Shown here piece by piece: positions 1 through 46,269 of a stretch of 64,000 nt of DNA. The notes beneath the pieces are model-generated. The model was not told where the DNA came from, searched no databases, and worked only from the letters and a program-made list of their open reading frames with translations. Each line of letters starts with the position of its first letter. Positions within the stretch are counted from its first letter, which is position 1. Origin of the DNA: Candidatus Woesearchaeota archaeon (GTDB lineage: Archaea > Nanobdellota > Nanobdellia > Woesearchaeales > ARS49); contig WJJS01000001.1 of the NCBI GenBank assembly GCA_014729505.1, positions 12,938 to 76,937 of the forward strand. Direction: 5' to 3'. The position numbers and the translations under genes were made by a program.

Positions 1-2013
1 AATAACAAGACGACCAGTGCATTTATTTTCCATAACCTTCTCAGCCCGTAGTAACAATTTCTCAGCAAACAACGGACAATCAATAACAAGACTTTCAAAC
101 TCCCCGCCCTCGCCAGCAACATTAAGACCTCTCTTTTCATGTAACCGCTGCAACTGTTTCACATCATCTCTGGTAATACTCCTGCCAAGCCACGACTCAT
201 CAAGACCATCACCAGCAATAGCAGTAAACCACAACACAAAACCATGATCGAGCAATTCGCGCATCTGCACCTCTTGAGGCTTATGCCACAAAGGAGAAAA
301 CATCTTGAGACCGAGCTCGTCACAAATACGCTCGATACGATCGCGCTGATATGTAGAAAACAAGGCCCCCGTTACGATACCTTGAATACCATACTGCTCT
401 TTTGCCGCACGAATAGTATGTTGCAGATCCAACAATTCCTTTTCCTTTTCACCAATAGTATTACCAATAACAAGAGGCAGACCCATTGATTGAGCCTGAA
501 GTGTTGTCAAATCAATAGTTGGCGTATGAAACATGAACGAATCAGGATTAGATGATTTCATCGTTATCAAACACGTCAACTCATAATTCTGCCTTTTCAT
601 AACATAAGCGGCATACGTACTGTCTTTACCTCCGCTAAATAGAACACCAAGCTTAACATTATGAGAAGGATAGAACTGAAGAAGATATTGTGACTTTAAG
701 AGTCCCTGTCGTTTTGCAAGTTTACCAATCGCATGATCAATTTTTGAACCGTACTGAGCAGCAATTTTCTTACGAGAAGCAAACTCCTCGGGAACACCCC
801 ATTCGCGAGCAATATCTCTTAACAATAACTTAGTAAGATCTCCAGAAATCTTATACTCGCCAGGAACACGCAACACATACTCGACAAGCGAACGATCAAG
901 AAAAGGAAGACGCAATTCAAGATGCAAAGCCATCGTAATAACATCATCACGATATAAATCACGCTCATACATCTTCAACAAACCCCACACACATTCCTTG
1001 TTCACATCCAGAGCCTTTTTATGACGTTCATACCCTGCAAAAATCTCCTCACTACCAAGACCAGAAAAAACAACCTTGCAACCATCCTCTTTAGCCAATT
1101 CACAAGCAAGAAAAAAAGTCAGTGCAACACCAACCTTCACCACATTAGAATCCTCAATAAGAGGAACAATACGAGACAAATACTGTGGAATATCATCTCT
1201 AGCAAGCTCGCGGACTTTAAGAGGTACGTCAAGAGCACGGGCAGCCCTTATAGCAGCATCAAGATCCTTAGCATTCGCATCTTTGATAGCCGCAGTGTAC
1301 AACGTGACTTCATGTCCATGATCCTTGAAATATTTAGCAAGAACAGTGCTATCCAAGCCACCACTAAACAACAATCCAATTTTTTGATGAGGAATTCGCT
1401 TTTTAATAGCCTCATCGAGCAAAGCTGCAGTTCTTGATTTAATACACTCATACGATTCAGTATGTTCGGGAAGATGCGTGACAAAAGAACGTTGTTGCCA
1501 AGAAACCGTATGAGAAGACACCTCAAAGAAAAGCAGTTGGCGAGGAATGAGTTCCTGCACATTTTCATACCCGAGATTCTCGAGCACTTTTTTTTCAGAA
1601 GCAAACGCAAAGACCTCGGTCGTATACACATACCACAATGGTTTGACACCAAACAAATCACGAGCAAGTAATAGTTGACCATCCCTTAGATACGCAAACG
1701 CAAAGACGCCGTCAAGAGAGGAGAGACACTCCTGACCGGACTCGTCGAGTACTCTGAGAAGAGCCTCCGCGTCATTTGCAGCATCAAGAACCAGTTCTTT
1801 CCAATTATAAATCTCACAATTAGCGACAAGCGTTCCACGACCAGACAAGGGCTGAGCAACATGATCAACAACAGCATGCAACGTATGACCAAGACAGCCG
1901 CCAGGCACCGGCTTCAATGCCTGTCCATCACGACCCCTCTCTTTAAGCAAACAAAGCGCTCTGCGTACCTGGGACTCTGCAGACGGGCCAAAAATACCTA
2001 CAATACCACACAT
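1..2013 (-). CDS. Asparagine synthetase (glutamine-hydrolysing, AsnB-like; N-terminal MCGIVG Ntn-glutaminase + SGGLDS PP-loop synthetase domain) fused in frame to a C-terminal MJ0570/Dph6-like PP-loop ATPase domain (LFSGGKDS...); 3' end runs off window
   Basis: Manual translation of minus strand from ATG at 2011-2013: MCGIVGIFGP...NCEIYNWKEL...LLFSGGLDSTVLAKY...KKIAAQYGSKIDHAIGKLAKRQ...VKLGVLFSGGKDSTYAAYVMK...EGGEFESLVIDCPLF, continuous frame verified block by block (481-900); no stop before position 1; not in ORF track because no stop inside window. Confidence 0.7.
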   Translation of the reverse strand, partial: MCGIVGIFGPSAESQVRRALCLLKERGRDGQALKPVPGGCLGHTLHAVVDHVAQPLSGRGTLVANCEIYNWKELVLDAANDAEALLRVLDESGQECLSSLDGVFAFAYLRDGQLLLARDLFGVKPLWYVYTTEVFAFASEKKVLENLGYENVQELIPRQLLFFEVSSHTVSWQQRSFVTHLPEHTESYECIKSRTAALLDEAIKKRIPHQKIGLLFSGGLDSTVLAKYFKDHGHEVTLYTAAIKDANAKDLDAAIRAARALDVPLKVRELARDDIPQYLSRIVPLIEDSNVVKVGVALTFFLACELAKEDGCKVVFSGLGSEEIFAGYERHKKALDVNKECVWGLLKMYERDLYRDDVITMALHLELRLPFLDRSLVEYVLRVPGEYKISGDLTKLLLRDIAREWGVPEEFASRKKIAAQYGSKIDHAIGKLAKRQGLLKSQYLLQFYPSHNVKLGVLFSGGKDSTYAAYVMKRQNYELTCLITMKSSNPDSFMFHTPTIDLTTLQAQSMGLPLVIGNTIGEKEKELLDLQHTIRAAKEQYGIQGIVTGALFSTYQRDRIERICDELGLKMFSPLWHKPQEVQMRELLDHGFVLWFTAIAGDGLDESWLGRSITRDDVKQLQRLHEKRGLNVAGEGGEFESLVIDCPLFAEKLLLRAEKVMENKCTGRLVI

Positions 2014-2054: not shown

Positions 2055-3866
2055 TTATAGATTACTGCGCTCAAGAGCAAGATTATGCGCTTTGATATAA
2101 TTCTCAACAAAATGCTTCCAATCCGCAGTCTCGGCGAGCTTTTTTGCACTAATGCGGTTCTCTGTACGTTCATGCTTTGACAAATGAGCAAAATCGTACA
2201 TGACATCAGTGAGTTTTTGAATCGCCAACTCCTCAGATTGTTTACGAGGAATCACAAAAATACCAGGAAAACGACCCTTAGCCTTGTCCTGCACGTACGA
2301 GCCAAAACCGGCCACGTCAGTAGTAACCGCGCTTACCCCAAGAGCACTAGTCTCAAGAGGAGTATAGCCCCAGGGTTCATAAAATGAGGGAAAGATACCG
2401 AGATTTCCGGCATTCAATGATTCTCGATACGTCAAATCCAACAAACCATCCGCACCCGTCAGATAAATCGGGTAGAACACGACCTTTACAGGATCATCCT
2501 CGTCATTAGCAAGACCTTCTTGACCAAGCATTGATAGAATAGGATCGGACTCTTCATGGTACAAATCATGAGTAGCCACCGGCGGTTTTCCCGACTGTTT
2601 TAGGCGACGAATCTTCACTTTCAAATCCTGCAACAAATCCTTATCAAAAATATTCTCCTTAGAAATTTGCTTTCCAGACACCAGCAAGTACGTTAAAGTA
2701 TTGCGTAACTCCTCGCCGAGATCATCAATATCATCCTTAATATCAAAAAAGTGAGAACGATTCTCCAACAATTCTGATTTAATGCTCTTCATACCGGCAG
2801 GAACCCAAAAGAACGTGATGATTGTCTTATTGGTTTTTTCCTTTTTGAGCCTCTCATTAAGACGGCTCAAGGACTTAATCAGCACATCAATACCCTTATC
2901 ATGAAACTCGTACCTTCCAGCGATAAAATAAATCAGCGTGTTTTCCAAATCAAACTCGTAATAAGGAAAAAAATAGTACATAAGAAACGTATGAATGCGT
3001 TGCTTAAAGATACGATGACGCACAGCAGATTCATCAAGAGTGGGAAACTTCGCAAAATCAAGACCATTTGTCACAATCACGTCGGGTTTTCTACCCAAAA
3101 ACTTCTCAGCCTCGGCACCAGTAATCGCACTAACAGTCGTAAACACATCAGCCTCACGAGCACAAATACGCTCCATCTGCACCTTTGCCCACAAGCCAGG
3201 ACCATGACGCTGCGCTTCACTTGGAGAAATAGAATCAAGCTGGTAAATATCCACTTTATTTGTTGCAAGAGTCCTGCCAAGCATAGTAGCATGAGTGGTG
3301 AATACGGATCCAAGAGGGACATTTCTGTCTTTACAATAGAGTAAAGCCGCACCAGACATCCATTCATGAGTATGCAACACTGTTTTTTTGTTGAAGATAC
3401 CGGTCAATTCCTCAACAACACGACCAACCGCCCAGGCCCACACGACAGGCTCATCAAAATCGTGATACTGCGTCGACAAAGAATCAAGCTTGAAACGCTC
3501 CCATAACAAGGTTTTTATCTCATTATTCTTATACTGGAAATCAGTATAATCAACAAGCATAACCTTAGGGGTGCCCTTAATCAACCATTGACCAGTATGC
3601 ACTTCAATGCCGACTTGTTTTAACCGTTCAAAGCAATCTTTGCACTGTTCGGGTACGGGGGTCTCCTCAAAAATACCGCGCAATTTATCAGGAAAATACG
3701 GTCCGATAAGGTAATAATTCTCATAATTCTCCTGCATAGAAGGAGCTTTAGACGTGACAACAGTGTAGATACCGCCAACTTTATTGCACACTTCCCACGA
3801 CACTTCAAAGAGAAGATCAGCACGAGGATCCATACGCTCATTCACGACTGCCGCGTATATAAACAT
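2055..3866 (-). CDS. Glycogen synthase, GT3 (eukaryote-like) family
   Basis: N-terminus EVSWEVCNKVGGIYTVVTSKAP...YYLIGPY closely matches the GT3 glycogen synthase signature (FEVAWEVANKVGGIYTV); 603 aa. Confidence 0.7.
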   Translation of the reverse strand: MFIYAAVVNERMDPRADLLFEVSWEVCNKVGGIYTVVTSKAPSMQENYENYYLIGPYFPDKLRGIFEETPVPEQCKDCFERLKQVGIEVHTGQWLIKGTPKVMLVDYTDFQYKNNEIKTLLWERFKLDSLSTQYHDFDEPVVWAWAVGRVVEELTGIFNKKTVLHTHEWMSGAALLYCKDRNVPLGSVFTTHATMLGRTLATNKVDIYQLDSISPSEAQRHGPGLWAKVQMERICAREADVFTTVSAITGAEAEKFLGRKPDVIVTNGLDFAKFPTLDESAVRHRIFKQRIHTFLMYYFFPYYEFDLENTLIYFIAGRYEFHDKGIDVLIKSLSRLNERLKKEKTNKTIITFFWVPAGMKSIKSELLENRSHFFDIKDDIDDLGEELRNTLTYLLVSGKQISKENIFDKDLLQDLKVKIRRLKQSGKPPVATHDLYHEESDPILSMLGQEGLANDEDDPVKVVFYPIYLTGADGLLDLTYRESLNAGNLGIFPSFYEPWGYTPLETSALGVSAVTTDVAGFGSYVQDKAKGRFPGIFVIPRKQSEELAIQKLTDVMYDFAHLSKHERTENRISAKKLAETADWKHFVENYIKAHNLALERSNL

Positions 3867-8344: not shown

Positions 8345-9133
8345 TTATAAAGGTTTCGGTGATTGGCGATACTGATAATAGAGTATTGCGCTGCCCGCGA
8401 TACACATAACGATATTGAACACCTGACCCAAGGTCAAACCAAGCAGACTTGGTTCGCCCACACGCAAAAACTCAGTACAAAAGCGAAACACTGCATATAA
8501 AATGAGCCAGATCGCAAGAAGACTTCCCGGACGAAGACCGCGATCACGCAAAAGCCACAGCACTACAAAAATAACAACATTATACGCGACTTCATACAAC
8601 TGGTTTGGATGACGAAACACCAATTGACCAAAAGCGTCAGTTTCACCACCAAAATTAACACCCCAGGGAAGCGACGTGACACGACCAAACAGTTCGCCAT
8701 TAATGAAATTACCCATCCTGCCAAAGGCTTGCCCAAGGGAAAGCGGCACAATCAAAAGATCGCCAAGCGAGAGCAACGATAAGCCAAAACGACGAGCAAG
8801 AATATACGCAGTAATAATCATCGCTACAAGAGAACCATGAAAACTAAGACCACCCTTCCAAATAGCAAGAATTTCAACAGGATGAGCAAAATAATAACCG
8901 GGCTGCCAAAACAGAACCTCAAACAGCCGCGCTCCAATAATCAACGCAACAACAAGCCAGACCATGAGCGAGTCCAACTGCTCAAGAGTAAGCGCAGTCT
9001 TTTCTTGACGAATACGACGACGAACATACCAGTACGCAAACAAAAAGGCCAAGACGTACATCACGCCATACCAATGAATCCTCAAAGGGCCAATACTAAT
9101 GAGGACCGGATCAATCGTGTGAATCCATACCAT
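8345..9133 (-). CDS. lgt: Prolipoprotein diacylglyceryl transferase (Lgt)
   Basis: IDPVLISIGPLRIHWYGVMYVLAFLFAYW N-terminus and GQAFGRMGNFINGELFGR signature align with bacterial Lgt (E. coli GAGRLGNFINGELWGR); polytopic membrane protein 262 aa. Confidence 0.85.
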   Translation of the reverse strand: MVWIHTIDPVLISIGPLRIHWYGVMYVLAFLFAYWYVRRRIRQEKTALTLEQLDSLMVWLVVALIIGARLFEVLFWQPGYYFAHPVEILAIWKGGLSFHGSLVAMIITAYILARRFGLSLLSLGDLLIVPLSLGQAFGRMGNFINGELFGRVTSLPWGVNFGGETDAFGQLVFRHPNQLYEVAYNVVIFVVLWLLRDRGLRPGSLLAIWLILYAVFRFCTEFLRVGEPSLLGLTLGQVFNIVMCIAGSAILYYQYRQSPKPL

Positions 9134-20135: not shown

Positions 20136-20253
20136 GGCGGAGTGGCTTAGCCTGGTTAGAGCACCGCGCTCATAGGTCATACCTTTGAGCACTGAGCTTT
20201 CGAGCTATGACGAAGAAACGCGGGGGTCACGAGTTCAAATCTCGTCTCCGCCA
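20136..20253 (+). tRNA. tRNA-Met (CAT) with ~43-nt intron at the canonical 37/38 position
   Basis: Acceptor GGCGGAG/CTCCGCC, anticodon stem CCGCG..CGCGG, loop CTCATAG, T-arm ACGAGTTCAAATCTCGT, discriminator A; intron gtcatacctttgagcactgagctttcgagctatgacgaagaaa. Confidence 0.75.
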
Positions 20254-26346: not shown

Positions 26347-28515
26347 CTATTGCGCGTCGGTCAAACCCTTTCTCTCACGGATTTGTTTGACAACCTTGTC
26401 CTGCAATTCTCCTGGGAGCCGTTCAAAGACCTGATCGACGAGAGAACTGTTTCCACGACCGCCAGTCGCACTACGCAATTCTGAACTCCATCCAAACATC
26501 TCGGCGACAGGAAGCTTTGCACGAATCATCACCATAATATTCTCCTGATTCATATCAAGCAATTGTCCGCGTTTGTTACTGATCAATTTACTGACATCGC
26601 CCATATGCTCGACGGGAGCATCGATTTGGTGAATTTGCTTAGGTTCGTAAAGCACAGGAGTTGCCGCCATGATAGCCTGACGAATACCGTCGCGAACAGC
26701 AGGATACATCTGCGCAGGACCGCGGTGGATCGCATCCTCGTGAAGCTTTGCATCCATCAAAGAAACCTTCACTTTAACACAAGGCTCTCGCGCAACAGGA
26801 CCTGCATTCATAACATCTTCAAACATGTCAAGAACCATTTCCATAATCTCGTTAATCTGCACAATTCCTCTCGTCAAATCAAGAAAGACACAACCGTTAT
26901 GGATATCCTTAACACTCAATGCAACCTTGTTATCCCAACCGCAAGCAACAAGCACGTCACGCATTTCCAGATCTTTCTTTTTAACGCGACCTTCACTAAT
27001 CTTACCTTCTCTGATAGCATCAATAACTTCTTGTTCGAGAGGTTCAACCTTGAAGTACAACTTGTTGTGCTTATTAGGAGATTTTCCTTCAAAAGTATCA
27101 GATTCTCTTGTAACATTTTCACGATACACGACGATAGGAGGACTAGTTTTTACCTCAACACCCTTCTCAGACTTAATACGATTCTCAATAATTTCAAGAT
27201 GCAATTCTCCCATGCCGTGAATCAAGTGTTCGCCTGTCTCCTCATTGATCTCGACTTTAAGCGTAGGATCCTCCTTGACAACCATTCTCAACACTTCAAT
27301 AAGTTTTGGAAGATCGCTAGGTTTTTTTGCCTCAATAGCTTTAGAGACAACAGGCTCAAAAATGTGTGTGATCTCTTCAAAAGGCTCGGTAGGTTCTGTA
27401 GTAATCGTCTCACCAGGAAACGCTTTGACGCCAGCCAAACCAATAACATTACCAGCAGGACTACTCGGCACAATATCACGCTTTGCACCATTAAAGACAA
27501 AAACCTGCTGAATACGACTGGGCATCTTGGCGCGATTCAAATATACACTATCGCCTTTACTAATAGTGCCGGAAAAAATGCGACCACAGGAAATCTCACC
27601 AGCCTGAGGATCGACGACAACCTTAGTGATACAAATAAAAGTAGGCCCTTTTGGATTTGCTGCAAGAAGAGACTTGCCCTCCTCACTTTCAAGATCTCCC
27701 TTCCACAATTTAGGAATGCGATATTTTTGAGCCTGCGTAGGACTTGGATGATGTCGAATACACATGTTAAGAATCACTTCATGAATAGGTGCTTTTTTCT
27801 GCAAGACCTTATACGCTTCACCGCCCTGTTCATATGCATCAATAATATCCTTAAACCCAATATTATTTCTTTGCATATACGGAACTGAAAGTGCCCAATT
27901 ATGAAATGCACTGCCAAAAGCAACAGTACCATTTTGTACATCAACCTGCCACTCCTTCTTATATTCTGCAGGAGCAATGTTTGCGATAAGCTTATTCACT
28001 TCACCAATCACCTTCAAAAAACGCTCCTGCATTTTGTCAGGGGCAAGCTGCAATTCCTTTATCAAACGATCAACCTTATTGATGAACAAAACAGGCTTAA
28101 CACGCTCTTTTAGAGCCTGACGCAAAACCGTCTCGGTTTGAGGCATAATACCCTCAACAGCACACACAAGAACAATCGCACCGTCAATAGCGCGCATAGC
28201 ACGCGTTACGTCACCGCCAAAATCAACGTGACCCGGCGTATCAATAAGATTAATCAAATATTCCTTGCCATCAAACTGATGCACCATTGACACTGCAGCA
28301 CTATCAATAGTAATACCACGAGCCTTTTCATCCTCATGAAAATCAAGAGCGCAAGCCTTACCAGCGAGTAACTCACTCATCATGCCAGCTCCCGCTAAGA
28401 GATTATCAGAAAATGTAGTCTTACCGTGATCAATGTGAGCACAAGTACAAATATTACGGATTTGATCGGGCTTGCTAGAAATTTCTGCAACCCTTTCTGA
28501 CATCTTTTTAGCCAT
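26347..28515 (-). CDS. fusA: Translation elongation factor 2 (aEF-2)
   Basis: AHIDHGKTTFSDNLL, DTPGHVDF, NKVDRL; diphthamide-region HRGPAQ; 722 aa. Confidence 0.95.
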   Translation of the reverse strand: MAKKMSERVAEISSKPDQIRNICTCAHIDHGKTTFSDNLLAGAGMMSELLAGKACALDFHEDEKARGITIDSAAVSMVHQFDGKEYLINLIDTPGHVDFGGDVTRAMRAIDGAIVLVCAVEGIMPQTETVLRQALKERVKPVLFINKVDRLIKELQLAPDKMQERFLKVIGEVNKLIANIAPAEYKKEWQVDVQNGTVAFGSAFHNWALSVPYMQRNNIGFKDIIDAYEQGGEAYKVLQKKAPIHEVILNMCIRHHPSPTQAQKYRIPKLWKGDLESEEGKSLLAANPKGPTFICITKVVVDPQAGEISCGRIFSGTISKGDSVYLNRAKMPSRIQQVFVFNGAKRDIVPSSPAGNVIGLAGVKAFPGETITTEPTEPFEEITHIFEPVVSKAIEAKKPSDLPKLIEVLRMVVKEDPTLKVEINEETGEHLIHGMGELHLEIIENRIKSEKGVEVKTSPPIVVYRENVTRESDTFEGKSPNKHNKLYFKVEPLEQEVIDAIREGKISEGRVKKKDLEMRDVLVACGWDNKVALSVKDIHNGCVFLDLTRGIVQINEIMEMVLDMFEDVMNAGPVAREPCVKVKVSLMDAKLHEDAIHRGPAQMYPAVRDGIRQAIMAATPVLYEPKQIHQIDAPVEHMGDVSKLISNKRGQLLDMNQENIMVMIRAKLPVAEMFGWSSELRSATGGRGNSSLVDQVFERLPGELQDKVVKQIRERKGLTDAQ

Positions 28516-33863: not shown

Positions 33864-35107
33864 ATGCAATGCAAAGACAATAATAAAGTTTATAGCAAAC
33901 GTCATGTTCTTACCAGTATGCGCGTTTTTGAAAGAGGGGAACTGAGACTCTTATGGCCGTTTTATGCCGATTATCTACTATCACAACTACTCTTTTTTGC
34001 ACCAGCGTTTTACATCGTGTATTTTCTGGATATTGGCCTGTCCTTGTTTCAGTTAGGACTTGTTATGGCTGCAGCACCACTGGCAGGTCTGCTCTTTGAG
34101 ATTCCAACAGGAGCCGTAGCAGATCTGTACGGGAGAAAATTTTCAGTCCTGCTAAGCTTTCTACTGGTAGCAGCAGGTTATTTGCTTCTCTTCTTCTTTA
34201 CAAGTATCCCAGCACTTATTGCCATTTTTGCGTTAATCGGATTTGCAGGAACATTCTGGTCGGGAGCAAAAGATGCGTGGGTTGTTGATCTTATAGGAAA
34301 AAGAAAAACATTACTCCAAATTATTTTGCAAAAGCAGATTTTCTCAGCAGTCTTGGACTAGTCATATCAGGCATCCTTGGAGCGTTCATTGTTGAAGTCA
34401 TTGGCCTACGATCCATATGGTTATTTGCTGCAGGTGCGTACGCGATATCATTTGTAGTTCTACTCACAGCCCCTGAACGTTATCGCAGACGACACACTTC
34501 ATTTAGTCGAGCTCTTAAAACTGTAACACAACAAAGCGGGGATGCGTTACGATACTGTCGAATGCACCACATACTTTACGCATTTTTCATTGCAAGCGCT
34601 CTTTGGCTTATCGCAGGAGCAATAGGAGGAGTCATGGCATGGACACCCTTTCTTATCGAACTTGGTTTTGCAGAACAACACTTTGGCTACTTGTGGAGTG
34701 CGATGGCCGTAGTACAAATGATGGGACTTGCCATCTCACAATTCGCTCTAAAAACGATCTCGTCTCGAAAAGTGATCATTGTTGCCCAGTCATTGTTTGC
34801 TGCAACTCTCCTTGCCGTGTATTGGGTATCTTCACTGCCGTTTGCGTTGTTACTGGTACTGTTTAGCATCTTATTTGCCTCAGCAAAAGCACCTTCATTA
34901 AACGTGTTCTTTCATCGGTTTACTCCTTCATACATGAGAGCAACCATCGGTTCAGTCAAGGCAACACTCGGCGCAGCTATAGCCATACTCATGATGCCGA
35001 TTTCAGGACATTTTATTGACACTATAGGTGCTCAAAACGCATTATTTAGCGCGGGACTTGCATTACTGCCTGCAGTAGGGATATACCTGCTAATGAAAGA
35101 ACACTAA
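33864..35107 (+). pseudogene. MFS-family transporter interrupted by a frameshift in an A-run near 34300 (track ORFs 33864-34361 and 34562-35107)
   Basis: Shifting frame at gaaaaagaaaaacatt gives continuous ...LIGKRK/NITPNYFAKADFLSSLGLVISGILGAFIVEVIGLRSIWLFAAGAYAISF...RYCRMHHILYAFF joining the second ORF; 12-TM topology overall. Confidence 0.5.
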
Positions 35108-40009: not shown

Positions 40010-40324
40010 ATGGGACATACCGTATGGAGCCAACGGATGAATGCAGAGCGCATCATCACAGAACTACTTCGTTACAAGAAAGCATTGCGAAGCGAACAAC
40101 AAGCACTGTTTGACGAATTACTGAAACGATCCATGAATCATCTCGGTACCATAAGTTACGCAAACAGCATGCACACCTGGGCATTACTGCTCTTATCAAT
40201 ACTACTAGAACAAGAACAACGCATAAAGAAACTAGAACATGTGGTTAATAGATACCTATCAAAAAAAGAACAAGATCGTCGTGTGGCTGAAAACGAAAAC
40301 GACGAATATGCATCGAACCTATGA
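40010..40324 (+). CDS. Hypothetical helical protein
   Basis: ORF in operon; 4-nt spacing from previous gene, overlaps next. Confidence 0.35.
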   Translation: MGHTVWSQRMNAERIITELLRYKKALRSEQQALFDELLKRSMNHLGTISYANSMHTWALLLLSILLEQEQRIKKLEHVVNRYLSKKEQDRRVAENENDEYASNL

Positions 40325-42794
40325 GTACTCTGTCACACTCTACGCACACGAAGATGCACGAGAATTCCTTACAACGAACAAGATTGCTTTTACAGAACAA
40401 CTCAAAAAAGATCCTTTTCGCAACAAGAAACATGTTCTTGCCATAACGTTATCATGCGAACGACTCGCACCATTTGTAAGATGGTTTGAACTCGGCACCA
40501 AACACCGCATACCGCTTTACAATGCAGATATCACGCCGGAACAACGCTTTCTTTACGAGAACAAGCTAGTACCGTGCAGCAACGTGCGAGACGTTGATGG
40601 GAGACTTGTACACGTCAACGAATCCGCACCACCGCTAAGCACTGTTCATTTGCGATGCGCCACACAAGGACCTATTACACGATTAGAATACCAGGATCAC
40701 ACTATCGTAGGCGAGGAACGAGAAGTACTCGCGCATTTTACGCAACGCTTCAGACAGGACGATCCAGATGTACTACTTATGCGACGAGCATACAAAGCAG
40801 TACCACATCTCTTTGAACGGTTACGTGCGAACGGATTGCACGTGCCTTTTCATCGATGGGATGAGATACCGCTGCGCCACCGCGGCGGCAAGACACACTT
40901 CAGTTACGGAAGAGTATATTATCAAGATCACTCGTTTCAACTGCGAGGACGATTACTCGTTGACACGGCAAGCAGTGTAGGATCAACATGCTCTGTACCT
41001 GCAATCATCGAACTTGCACAGCTCACAGGCACTCGATTCCAACGCGTAGCAGCACGCAGTTTCGGTGCCTCATTTCAACTTCAACTCGTCAAAGAACTGC
41101 TCGCCCAAGATCTGCTTGTGCCATACAAGGAAAAACCCTTTGATGAACCGCTGCGCATGACAGAGTTATTCGACGCAGACAGAGCAGGACATACCTTTGA
41201 TCCTCAACTAGGATTTCACAATGATGTTGTAGCAATAGACTTCTCAAGCATGTATCCATGGATCATCCACAACTACAACATCAGCGCAGATACCATACTC
41301 ACAAAAAAAGGAAAGAAGACCAAGATTCCTGCAGTACCAATTGATGTAACCACACAATATCAAGGAGTGATACCAAAAGCAATCAAACCATTGTTAGATC
41401 GACGCATGTACTACAAAAAACATCCGACGCCGGAAAACAAACGACGAGCAATAGGACTAAAAACACTGCTCGTGACCTGTTATGGTTATCTGCGATTTCG
41501 CGAATTTAAAATGGGACTTGCCACATCACACATGGCAATTTGTTCATACGCGCGAGAACTCCTCCTACAATCAGCAACGCTTGCAGAAGAACAAGGCTTT
41601 CGCGTCATTCACGGCATCATCGATTCACTCTACATATCAAAAAAAGACATTACCACAACAGAAGTCGAAACATTTCGAAAAGAACTAGAACACATGAGCG
41701 GTATACCCGTTGCCTGCGATGGCATCTTCAAATGGATCGTGTTTCTTTCACGACGACATGACAACACTGTCGGAGTGCCGGCCCGTTATTTTGGCGCATA
41801 TAAAAATGGTGGCATTAAAGCAAGAGGTATTGAAGTACGACAATCGAGTGCGCCGCTACTTATACGACGATTCCAACAAAACGTGTTAGAAGAGCTCGCA
41901 GCGTTTTCAACGAAAAGAGCGATACAGGATCACTTGCCACAAGTCATGAAACGCGCACGAGCAGTCCTGCACGATCTGCCTGCGACGCCACGAGAAGAAC
42001 TGTGTTGCAGAATACGCATCAGTAAGACCACGTATTCTCGAAACATTCCACAACGGCAAGTGATACGCTTGTTAACACAACAAGGGAGAGACATTATCGC
42101 TGGACAGGTCATACGGTTCTGGTACAGTGCGAATGGACCGTTACTAGTCGATATGACTGGAAGGCCAGACTACAAAAAATATCGCGATTTGTTATTACGC
42201 GCAATACACTCAGTGTACCAGCCTTTCGGTTATACTACCAAACAACTACAACACCTCCTATTAGACGAATATCAAAGCGTTCTGCAAGATTTTGCGCGAC
42301 AACAGATCCGCTACGAATACGTGCCTATGAAAAAACACTATGCACAAAAACGAGGACTGTCAGAGAGAATCCTGCGACAACGACTGGAACGACAAGGATG
42401 GACGGTGTGGCGCGGCGGCAGCATACATATTACTCGTTATGAAGAACTGTATCCCAACGTACGACGAAAGTACGAATTACTCATCCGTCTGCTTGACGAT
42501 CATAAGCCAGACACAAAAGAAATACTGCAATATTATTGCATGATACAGCACGGCATGCCAGATTTTCTCTGCTACAAAAATGGACGATTCAAATTTGTTG
42601 AATGCAAATTGCAATACGAGCAATTAAGTCATCGACAAAAACGCTGCATTATGAAGCTACAAGACCTGGGATTTGATGTGGAAGTTCACAAACTCGTTGA
42701 CAAACGCACAAAAATGAGAGAGGCACTAGTTGACATGTTTACCAATTGCAAAATAGTACGAGAACGACAACTAGCCCTACTCTCAACATGGTGA
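40239..42794 (+). CDS. Family-B DNA polymerase-like protein lacking recognisable 3'-5' exonuclease motifs, motif C variant IIDS, fused to C-terminal VRR-NUC nuclease domain (start uncertain, 40239 or 40306)
   Basis: Motif A AIDFSSMYPWII, motif B KTLLVTCYGYLRF, motif C region RVIHGIIDSLYI (DTD replaced by IID), KxY KKYRDL; C-terminus GMPDFLCYKNGRFKFVECK...LSHRQKRCIMKLQDLGFDVEV = VRR-NUC (PD-(D/E)xK) pattern; no DxE/YxxxD exo motifs found. Confidence 0.7.
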   Translation: MWLIDTYQKKNKIVVWLKTKTTNMHRTYEYSVTLYAHEDAREFLTTNKIAFTEQLKKDPFRNKKHVLAITLSCERLAPFVRWFELGTKHRIPLYNADITPEQRFLYENKLVPCSNVRDVDGRLVHVNESAPPLSTVHLRCATQGPITRLEYQDHTIVGEEREVLAHFTQRFRQDDPDVLLMRRAYKAVPHLFERLRANGLHVPFHRWDEIPLRHRGGKTHFSYGRVYYQDHSFQLRGRLLVDTASSVGSTCSVPAIIELAQLTGTRFQRVAARSFGASFQLQLVKELLAQDLLVPYKEKPFDEPLRMTELFDADRAGHTFDPQLGFHNDVVAIDFSSMYPWIIHNYNISADTILTKKGKKTKIPAVPIDVTTQYQGVIPKAIKPLLDRRMYYKKHPTPENKRRAIGLKTLLVTCYGYLRFREFKMGLATSHMAICSYARELLLQSATLAEEQGFRVIHGIIDSLYISKKDITTTEVETFRKELEHMSGIPVACDGIFKWIVFLSRRHDNTVGVPARYFGAYKNGGIKARGIEVRQSSAPLLIRRFQQNVLEELAAFSTKRAIQDHLPQVMKRARAVLHDLPATPREELCCRIRISKTTYSRNIPQRQVIRLLTQQGRDIIAGQVIRFWYSANGPLLVDMTGRPDYKKYRDLLLRAIHSVYQPFGYTTKQLQHLLLDEYQSVLQDFARQQIRYEYVPMKKHYAQKRGLSERILRQRLERQGWTVWRGGSIHITRYEELYPNVRRKYELLIRLLDDHKPDTKEILQYYCMIQHGMPDFLCYKNGRFKFVECKLQYEQLSHRQKRCIMKLQDLGFDVEVHKLVDKRTKMREALVDMFTNCKIVRERQLALLSTW

Positions 42795-46145: not shown

Positions 46146-46269
46146 TCCCCGCCCCCGGACTTGAACCAGGAACCTCGCGGTGACGGCTGACTCGCCTTCA
46201 CGTCTCGAGCGTTGCTCGGAATCAGTTGAGTTTCTACAGCCGCGCGCTCTACCATTGAGCTAGGCGGGG
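46146..46269 (-). tRNA. tRNA-Tyr (GTA) with ~52-nt intron at canonical position
   Basis: Reverse complement: CCCCGCC TA GCTCAATGGTAGAGC G CGCGG CTGTAGA [intron] CCGCG AGGTT CCTGGTTCAAGTCCGGG GGCGGGG A; C1:G72 as expected for archaeal Tyr. Confidence 0.8.

Follow-up and report, generated by a model that had tools for sequence, protein, structure and literature searches.

A glutaminase and an asparagine-synthetase-like domain fused to Dph6 in a Woesearchaeota archaeon: a probable single-chain, glutamine-dependent diphthine--ammonia ligase

Why would an archaeon carry what looks like an asparagine synthetase and a diphthine--ammonia ligase in a single polypeptide? The question is raised by the gene at the left edge of a 64,000-nucleotide stretch of DNA from a Candidatus Woesearchaeota archaeon, which we call the window. 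Diphthamide, a conserved modification of elongation factor 2 (EF-2) that serves translation fidelity, is the target of diphtheria toxin, and to our knowledge the cellular source of ammonia for the last step of its synthesis has never been shown. Nature's clearest hint that the donor can be glutamine comes from fused archaeal enzymes, which also offer a test system contained in one protein. The preliminary description of this locus read the gene as an in-frame fusion in which an Ntn glutaminase and an AsnB-type PP-loop domain are followed by a second PP-loop domain of the MJ0570/Dph6 type. We find that the three-domain gene is real, and that it most likely encodes a glutamine-using enzyme that would finish the diphthamide modification of EF-2.

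The open reading frame (ORF) lies on the minus strand at positions 1..2013 and covers residues 1-671 of a 680-residue, three-domain protein. Read from 2013 to 1, its 671 codons include no stop, and the remaining two frames are stop-rich. The ATG at 2013..2011 is the earliest start past an in-frame TAA at 2064..2062, which puts a cysteine at residue 2, the place where an Ntn amidotransferase needs it. The frame runs off the left edge of the window nine residues short of the C-terminus, which we read from an identical full-length protein in NCBI nr (P0001, 680 aa), named "diphthine--ammonia ligase [Ca. Woesearchaeota]". Pfam recovers all three domains: GATase_7 at residues 50-145, Asn_synthase at residues 196-335 with a second stretch, and Diphthami_syn_2 at residues 454-666 (E 1.5e-60). 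Every motif quoted in the preliminary description is present, namely MCGIVG (residues 1-6), SGGLDS (217-222), LFSGGKDS (458-465) and EGGEFES (635-641). Two genes might also be joined in this way by a frameshift, an overlooked stop codon or chimeric assembly, and the end of the ORF is indeed out of view at the window edge, but we found no support for such an artefact. The reading frame is uninterrupted, the other frames are closed, the identical protein is in nr, and in at least 120 protein clusters (56-62% identity) a single ORF has the same architecture, as it does in 75 of the best 80 reference-genome loci, which come from independent assemblies. Because of this recurrence we regard an artefact as ruled out and give it virtually no weight. 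Carriers of the fusion include Woesearchaeota, other Nanoarchaeota, Iainarchaeota, Nanohaloarchaea, Methanolobus and Methanomethylovorans; in many DPANN archaea and some methanogens the fusion is the common form of Dph6, and it occurs in hundreds of species.

Proteins of this kind are already known. AsnB-DUF71 fusions, in which a GAT-II domain is followed by an Asn_synthase PP-loop domain and Dph6, were described in Methanohalophilus mahii, Methanosalsum zhilinae and 'Ca. Nanosalinarum sp. J07AB56', and glutaminase was proposed in the same paper as the source of ammonia for the amidation of diphthine by Dph6 (de Crecy-Lagard et al. 2012, Biol Direct 7:32, PMC3541065). The Woesearchaeota protein has the same domains (GAT-II, Asn_synthase PP-loop, DUF71/Dph6) in the same order on one polypeptide, and the same proposed role. 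Relatives from Methanolobus, Methanomethylovorans and Nanosalina carry the same diagnostic residues, and over the AsnB-like module our copy is ~40-44% identical to methanogen and Nanohaloarchaea versions, a figure that refers to relatives of the 2012 sequences rather than to those sequences themselves. Eukaryotic Dph6 (yeast YLR143W) likewise combines Dph6 with a domain proposed to supply ammonia, but there the partners are RidA/YjgF-like, of the RidA deaminase type, and sit at the opposite, C-terminal end of Dph6 (PMC3541065). Beyond the 2012 proposal, we found no paper in the literature searched that assays a fused enzyme biochemically or addresses glutamine-dependent diphthamide synthesis. 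The fusion, and the idea that its glutaminase feeds Dph6, have been in print since 2012, and our finding therefore adds no new concept. What is new is a detail: judged by its residues, the "AsnB" part is not a canonical asparagine synthetase.

The assignment of the C-terminal domain (residues 454-671 as far as the window reaches, ending at 680 in P0001; positions 1..654, minus strand) is secure. It scores 256.4 bits against a cutoff of 197.3 for the archaeal Dph6 equivalog family (NCBIfam TIGR03679, Dph6_archaeal) and 204.9 against 23.2 for PF01902, in line with the MJ0570-family membership claimed earlier. Its 227 residues match the stand-alone archaeal enzymes PF0828 (PDB 3RJZ/3RK0/3RK1) and PH1257 (PDB 2D13), with E ~1e-57 to 2d13 and 3rjz, and in Foldseek comparisons with TM 0.94-0.96 and rmsd 1.2-1.6 Å to 3rk1 and 2d13. 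Shared with these enzymes are the PP-loop (SGGKDS, residues 460-465, 619..636), the EGGEFE motif of the Dph6 subfamily (residues 635-640, 94..111; equivalent to PF0828 E183, E186 and E188) and the proposed EF-2 contacts. Among 120 homologues there is no variation at S460, G462, K463, D464, S465, E635, G636, G637, E638 or E640, and position 461 is S or G. The PF0828 residues at the modelled EF-2 interface, S44, Y45, E78, Y103, Q104, A149, E183, E186 and E188 (PMC3541065), map to S492, F493, E526, Y555, Q556, G601, E635, E638 and E640; across the same homologues seven of the nine positions are invariant, the Y45 position is Y or F (Y in 103/120), and the A149 position is A in 108/120. Whereas stand-alone Dph6 is a protein of ~220-237 residues with no attached ammonia source, the fusion has ~450 further residues on the N-terminal side, which supply the glutaminase and another PP-loop domain.

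The presumed substrate is encoded in the same window. EF-2 (26347..28515, minus strand) retains the diphthamide-acceptor His597 (codon 26725..26727) in the loop LHEDAIHRGPAQ. Other diphthamide-pathway families had no match besides the fusion gene in a Pfam scan of the 48 ORFs of the 64-kb window. The preliminary description had also raised the question of a separate dph6 elsewhere in the genome; at the local scale that we covered, there is no second dph6 in the window and none within ±10 kb of the fusion in the reference-genome loci.

The protein's opposite end holds a class-II (Ntn) glutamine amidotransferase domain (about residues 1-175; 1489..2013), which matches Pfam GATase_7/GATase_6 and has the fold of the AsnB N-domain. 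The nucleophile is Cys2, the mature Cys1 (codon 2008..2010), and is invariant in 120/120 family members. The equivalents of AsnB R30, N74, E76 and D98 are invariant as well, and with C2, N65, E67 and D81 fixed throughout the family the domain keeps the nucleophile and the oxyanion/amino-group residues of AsnB. It differs at the glutamine-binding arginine (E. coli R49, human Arg-48): this residue and the following Leu align with Leu45-His46 (1876..1881), both invariant in the family, and Leu-His occupies the position in 80/81 sequences of the wider clade, the remaining one being gapped there. Given that the replacement holds across the clade, glutamine binding must differ from that of AsnB, or the donor may differ.

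The domain between these two, an asparagine-synthetase-like, putatively adenylating PP-loop domain (residues 188-435; 709..1452), is the best-conserved part of the protein (0.84, against 0.74 and 0.72). Together with the glutaminase it has the two-domain fold and arrangement of AsnB (EC 6.3.5.4), with TM 0.80 to E. coli AsnB (PDB 1CT9) and 0.74-0.80 over AsnB/ASNS structures, human ASNS (PDB 6GQ3) included. The alignment to 1CT9 reaches no further than residue 449 of the 553 in the E. coli protein, ~35 residues short of the module's end; most of the AsnB C-terminal region is therefore without a counterpart. The first PP-loop (SGGLDS, residues 217-222; 1348..1365) is invariant at S217, G218, G219, D221 and S222, as are K395 and K416, so that the SGGxDS loop and the ATP/PPi-site lysines of AsnB (K429, K449) are kept. 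The residues of the acceptor side are another matter. Canonical AsnB reads SGEGSDE where this protein reads SGLGSEE (residues 317-323; 1045..1065), with Leu319 at the catalytic Glu (E. coli E348, human Glu-364) and Glu in place of D351. Leu319 is present in 120/120 homologues, and the position is never Glu, whether in the wider clade (0/81) or among the full-length or fused representatives tabulated (0/106). Likewise VKVG (residues 292-295; 1129..1140) aligns with the AsnB TT(I/V)R stretch, which, following the older mutagenesis literature, we take to have a role in aspartate binding. Human ASNS variants E364A, E364Q and D367A are inactive (PMC6748925). With residues that are experimentally required for asparagine synthesis replaced, and with scores below the curated cutoffs, narrowly for the general asparagine synthase family (TIGR01536, 265.3 against 267.1 bits) and widely for AsnB proper (NF006949, 200.6 against 499 bits), we rule out that the glutaminase and middle domains form a canonical asparagine synthetase. 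The AsnB identity given in the preliminary description thus holds for the fold and the PP-loop, and fails for the enzyme itself, in which the catalytic Glu, TTxR and the glutamine-binding Arg are all replaced. The label also misleads metabolic reconstruction, and the fusion gene is no ground for assigning asparagine synthesis to the genomes that carry it.

It could still be argued that the fusion merely secures co-expression of two independent enzymes, an ammonia-dependent Dph6 and a true asparagine synthetase that uses glutamine, and that no ammonia passes between them. Stand-alone Dph6 is active with NH4+ in vitro, the fold and the glutaminase-synthetase arrangement are those of AsnB, and TIGR01536 is missed by 1.8 bits only. 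We nevertheless consider such a pairing quite improbable, as the residues essential for asparagine synthesis are missing in every member, the score for AsnB proper falls far below its cutoff, and the fusion is kept across very distant archaeal lineages. The linker between the AsnB-like module and Dph6 (residues 436-453; 655..708) is also short and conserved (at least 96% of members have Y443, L444, F447, Y448 and N452) and is modelled with pLDDT ~90, and an AlphaFold2 model of all 680 residues (pLDDT 92, pTM 0.88) forms one compact unit. The conserved linker and the model suggest that the domains pack in a fixed manner.

If the chain does not make asparagine, what does it make? We think it probable that the product is a diphthamide synthetase, a diphthine--ammonia ligase that draws on glutamine and works as a single chain. 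Glutamine would be hydrolysed by the N-terminal Ntn glutaminase, and the ammonia set free would pass through the AsnB-like middle domain, the constant partner of such glutaminases, to the C-terminal Dph6 domain, all within one molecule; Dph6 would then adenylate the diphthine carboxylate on EF-2 His597 and amidate it to diphthamide. The middle domain, which keeps an ATP/PPi-binding PP-loop site and has lost the residues for forming beta-aspartyl-AMP, would most likely serve as a structural, tunnel and possibly nucleotide-sensing adaptor between glutaminase and Dph6. The use of glutamine, the passage of ammonia to Dph6 and the middle domain's role are inferences from features that are themselves directly observed: the catalytic residues of glutaminase and Dph6 are invariant, the EF-2 histidine is intact and the fusion is stable across lineages, all of which fits this reading, as does the compact model. 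The glutamine-dependent amidation within one polypeptide suggested by the preliminary description is thus well matched by the evidence as a probable function; its novelty does not stand, given the 2012 paper.

The adaptor role sits less easily with the middle domain itself. Its conservation is the highest in the protein, and an invariant PP-loop with both ATP-site lysines would seem more than a passive conduit needs. It is also possible that the enzyme is bifunctional, the AsnB-like domain being an active adenylating amidotransferase for a carboxylate other than aspartate (a second substrate, or diphthine), with the glutaminase either shared with Dph6 or reserved for the middle domain while Dph6 takes free ammonia. 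Sets of 81 to 150 sequences show no variation in SGGxDS or in the equivalents of K429, K449, E352 and human Glu-414, and the rebuilt acceptor pocket (IEDSNVVKVGVAL, SGLGSEE) is strongly conserved inside the Woesearchaeota family. Two proteins (P0139, P0177) have lost Cys1 and the Dph6 motifs together and retain an intact middle domain. The 2012 paper itself proposed that ammonia might serve both PP-loop domains, and a reviewer of that paper asked the same (PMC3541065). On the other hand, no candidate second substrate is known, and clade members differ in what they have at the catalytic-Glu position (L, S, F, N, T, V, I, Q, M), as one would expect of a site without chemistry. Moreover, a few lineages degrade the middle PP-loop and keep glutaminase and Dph6: in four divergent fused proteins (P0188, P0233, P0245, P0255) the scored glutaminase residues and Dph6 are intact, Cys1 being retained in three, with P0245 truncated at its N-terminus. 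Both this pattern and the joint loss in P0139 and P0177 rest on a handful of sequences. An extra biosynthetic amidation is also unlikely to persist in the reduced genomes of DPANN archaea, and on balance we consider bifunctionality unlikely.

A related reading gives the conserved ATP pocket work to do. We speculate, tentatively, that the AsnB-like module represents a distinct short amidotransferase clade that abandoned asparagine synthesis, and that in the fused enzyme its pocket may act either as a second adenylation site (for diphthine/EF-2 or another substrate) or as a nucleotide-gated relay that would lengthen the ammonia tunnel over two PP-loop sites; the Arg to Leu-His change could also mean altered donor recognition. 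This is possible, if somewhat doubtful, and the papers that we found describe neither a working ATP pocket nor altered donor recognition in such a module. The residue-level list is now available to guide a test of which PP-loop domain uses the ammonia.

Members of the short AsnB-like clade also occur on their own. We counted a protein as genuinely stand-alone if a stop codon follows the module and the locus has no Dph6 ORF, and four loci qualify (L032, L062, L078, L080). A larger set of 53 "stand-alone" representatives was set aside, its count being inflated by fragments: P0121 runs off its contig, and the tails of both P0121 and P0124 continue into Dph6. Since the genuine cases have no dph6 in the locus, the module can work without a covalently attached Dph6, which speaks for a bifunctional enzyme; for the fused protein we continue to favor a glutamine-dependent diphthine--ammonia ligase. 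We found no conserved operon partner of the fusion across the 80 reference loci. The commonest neighbour, present in 18 of the 80, has the appearance of a DRG/Obg-type GTPase when judged by eye.

On the minus strand of the window, 2013..1 reads as a single open frame of 671 stop-free codons, with the remaining two frames there packed with stops. Pfam matches all three domains along it, namely GATase_7 (residues 50-145), Asn_synthase (residues 196-335 and a second stretch) and Diphthami_syn_2 (residues 454-666, E 1.5e-60), so the in-frame three-domain fusion claimed in the preliminary description stands, and every motif that it named is found in the translated ORF. Its assignment of the C-terminal domain to the MJ0570/Dph6 type is likewise upheld, since TIGR03679, the NCBIfam archaeal Dph6 equivalog, scores 256.4 bits, above its 197.3 cutoff. 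After an in-frame TAA (2064..2062), the first start is the ATG at 2013..2011, which makes Cys residue 2 of the fused protein, where an N-terminal-nucleophile amidotransferase requires it. The ORF exits the window nine residues short of its end, and an identical full-length protein of 680 aa is present in NCBI nr (P0001, named diphthine--ammonia ligase). A precomputed match to PF28410.1 (Pfam) lies on nearly all fused homologues P0001-P0120, P0001 included.

The fusion is an already published, database-annotated architecture. De Crecy-Lagard et al. (2012, Biol Direct 7:32, PMC3541065), who predicted that DUF71 is Dph6, described it for Methanohalophilus mahii, Methanosalsum zhilinae and 'Ca. 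Nanosalinarum', recognised two units in the AsnB part, one GAT-II and the other an Asn_synthase PP-loop domain, and proposed that NH3 is supplied by glutamine hydrolysis. The functional idea of the preliminary description, a glutamine-dependent amidation within one polypeptide, is reasonable. Term searches of later archaeal diphthamide-gene surveys gave no mention of the AsnB-like–Dph6 fusion.

At least 120 database clusters share the three-domain content, and the best 120 (675-740 aa, 56-62% identity) belong, where named, to Woesearchaeota or Nanoarchaeota. A profile of the N-terminal module alone (glutaminase plus middle domain) found 386 relatives in reference genomes; 75 of the best 80 loci encode the three-domain form as a single ORF, a contig end truncates another, and the other four are true two-domain genes that stand alone. 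Judged by their record titles, fused loci occur in Woesearchaeota, Nanoarchaeota, Iainarchaeota, Nanohaloarchaea/Nanosalina, Methanolobus and Methanomethylovorans, with single records labelled Altiarchaeota, Nanobdellota and Acidobacteriota and numerous additional ones deposited as "uncultured Methanosarcinales". Given this recurrence in clusters and loci, we exclude an artefact with near certainty; the frameshift or stop between domains that was named as a possible refutation is nowhere in the open frame. As to whether a separate dph6 exists elsewhere in the genome, the answer is negative for the 64-kb window, where we found no second Dph6 or AsnB-like gene, and for ±10 kb around each of the best 80 loci, and it applies at that scope. 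Nor did any conserved partner gene recur near the fused gene across the 80 loci. One Woesearchaeota genome (L021 16..3150, also P0127, 1005 aa) has the three-domain protein extended in frame at its N-terminus by about 340 aa of SMC_N/AAA sequence, and the glutaminase of this longer protein is without the N-terminal Cys; it is a genuine four-part fusion whose glutaminase is dead, or else a gene-call/assembly chimera.

Residue positions were taken from an alignment of 120 fused homologues (A1), mapped to PDB chains via HMMER alignments. In the Dph6 domain, the SGGKDS PP-loop and the EGGEFE motif are conserved, and of the nine residues modelled as the EF-2 interface of PF0828 (S44, Y45, E78, Y103, Q104, A149, E183, E186 and E188; PMC3541065), seven have invariant equivalents, the Y45 position holds Y or F, and 108 of 120 homologues have A at the A149 position. 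AlphaFold2 run with A1 on all 680 residues gave a mean pLDDT of 92, a pTM of 0.88 and a linker pLDDT of about 90; the linker is short and conserved, with Y443, L444, F447, Y448 and N452 each in at least 96% of members. So high a pTM for a three-domain chain suggests that the domains are packed in a fixed arrangement rather than tethered loosely. In Foldseek comparisons, residues 1 to ~450 match E. coli AsnB (1ct9) as a two-domain unit (target-normalised TM 0.80, 2.9 A) and the C-terminal domain matches PF0828 and PH1257 (TM 0.94-0.96); no solved structure spanning all three domains was found, the best query-normalised TM being 0.59.

In the glutaminase, Cys1 never varies, nor do the residues that correspond to E. 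coli R30, N74, E76 and D98. Unlike E. coli AsnB and human ASNS, the fused enzymes have Leu and then His, both invariant, where the Arg that binds glutamine would stand (E. coli R49; human Arg-48, positioned to contact glutamine, Zhu et al. 2019, PMC6748925), and Leu-His recurs in 80 of 81 sequences from reference-genome loci, the remaining one being gapped there. Invariant in the middle domain are the SGGxDS PP-loop, the K429 and K449 equivalents (K449 is human Lys-466, described as essential) and the equivalent of human Glu-414, described as absolutely conserved. All 120 homologues have Leu319 in place of the SGEGSDE Glu (E. coli E348, human Glu-364), the D351 position holds Glu, and the AsnB TT(I/V)R stretch reads VKVG; in the human enzyme, E364A, E364Q and D367A each yield an inactive variant (Zhu et al. 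2019, PMC6748925). Across the 81 sequences, methanogen and Nanohaloarchaea fusions included, Glu is absent at the E348 position (L 61, S 12, F 2, N 1, T 1), every sequence keeps the middle PP-loop and K395, and at K416 there are 80 Lys and a single Arg. Glu is also missing there from the 106 fused or full-length members of the 150 closest 50%-identity representatives. The curated family models agree, on sequence scores, that the module is not AsnB proper (TIGR01536, 265.3 against a cutoff of 267.1; NF006949, 200.6 against 499). The earlier label of asparagine synthetase therefore does not hold, and a better name for this half is a non-canonical AsnB-like amidotransferase module. That the fusion merely co-expresses a true asparagine synthetase with Dph6 is improbable, being contradicted by the missing catalytic residues.

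We think it fairly probable that the fused enzyme is a single-chain glutamine-dependent diphthamide synthetase. The glutaminase would release NH3, the Dph6 domain would adenylate and then amidate diphthine on EF-2, and the AsnB-like domain, having lost asparagine synthesis, would act as an adaptor that completes the glutaminase site, carries the tunnel and perhaps senses nucleotide. Divergent members lend this adaptor mechanism small-sample support: in P0188, P0233, P0245 and P0255 the middle PP-loop is degraded but the glutaminase residues that were scored and the Dph6 motifs are intact (Cys1 of P0245 cannot be judged because its N-terminus is truncated; the other three keep Cys1), and in the fused representatives P0139 and P0177 a Cys1 to Thr change (MTRI...) goes together with degradation of the PP-loop and EGGExE motifs of Dph6. 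P0139 and P0177 retain an intact PP-loop and lysines in the AsnB-like domain, and this survival favors the main rival, in which the middle domain would itself be active as a second site of adenylation, on a carboxylate other than aspartate; we regard this as possible but rather unlikely. The ATP site of the middle domain is intact, and the domain is very highly conserved (mean majority-residue frequency 0.84, above 0.74 for Dph6 and 0.72 for the glutaminase). Stand-alone forms also speak for a second site. An exhaustive search with residues 1-450 gave 698 representatives at E <= 1e-30, and the best 150 comprise both fused proteins (a Dph6 domain in 53) and shorter ones. Among the latter, P0121 and P0124 are contig-end fragments of fused genes, and many stop cleanly just past a conserved "...YL.." motif, where fused proteins run on into the linker. 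At four loci (L032, L062, L078 and L080) the gene stands alone, closed by a stop codon and lacking any Dph6 ORF close by; their stop-to-stop ORFs of 467-519 aa carry Leu at the E348 position and Leu-His at R49/L50. The module can therefore exist without a covalently attached Dph6, and it is a distinct short AsnB-like clade. Which PP-loop domain uses ammonia, and what the AsnB-like one catalyses, was asked by the reviewer L. Aravind in 2012, and the authors replied that ammonia might serve both (PMC3541065); we found no later paper on which domain uses ammonia in the literature searched.

The putative substrate is encoded in the window: EF-2 lies at 26347..28515 on the minus strand and carries LHEDAIHRGPAQ with the acceptor His597. 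The window is archaeal in content, with RNA polymerase subunits B and A both split and with NusA-KH, S12, S7, thermosome and EF-1alpha besides EF-2. Other diphthamide-pathway, asparagine-synthetase and Asn-tRNA-pathway families had no match among 48 Pfam-scanned ORFs of the 64-kb window, a span too small to judge absence. Directly upstream of the fused gene, 2055..3866 (minus) encodes a 603-aa protein with an end-to-end match to PF05693, the glycogen synthase family of eukaryotic type (487 bits), which is unusual in a DPANN archaeon. Lgt, the prolipoprotein diacylglyceryl transferase and normally a bacterial lipoprotein-maturation enzyme, has a full-length match in this archaeal genome at 8345..9133 (minus; PF01790, 238 bits). 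Two additional Rfam tRNA matches, 20136..20253 (plus, 118 nt) and 46146..46269 (minus, 124 nt), are absent from the ARAGORN output and are probably intron-containing archaeal tRNAs. Two plus-strand ORFs, 33864..34361 and 34562..35107, match the N- and C-terminal halves of the MFS_1 profile, and this apparently split transporter may reflect a frameshift, pseudogene formation or a gene that is truly in two parts. At 40239..42794 (plus), an 851-aa protein joins a family-B DNA polymerase domain to a C-terminal VRR-NUC nuclease domain.
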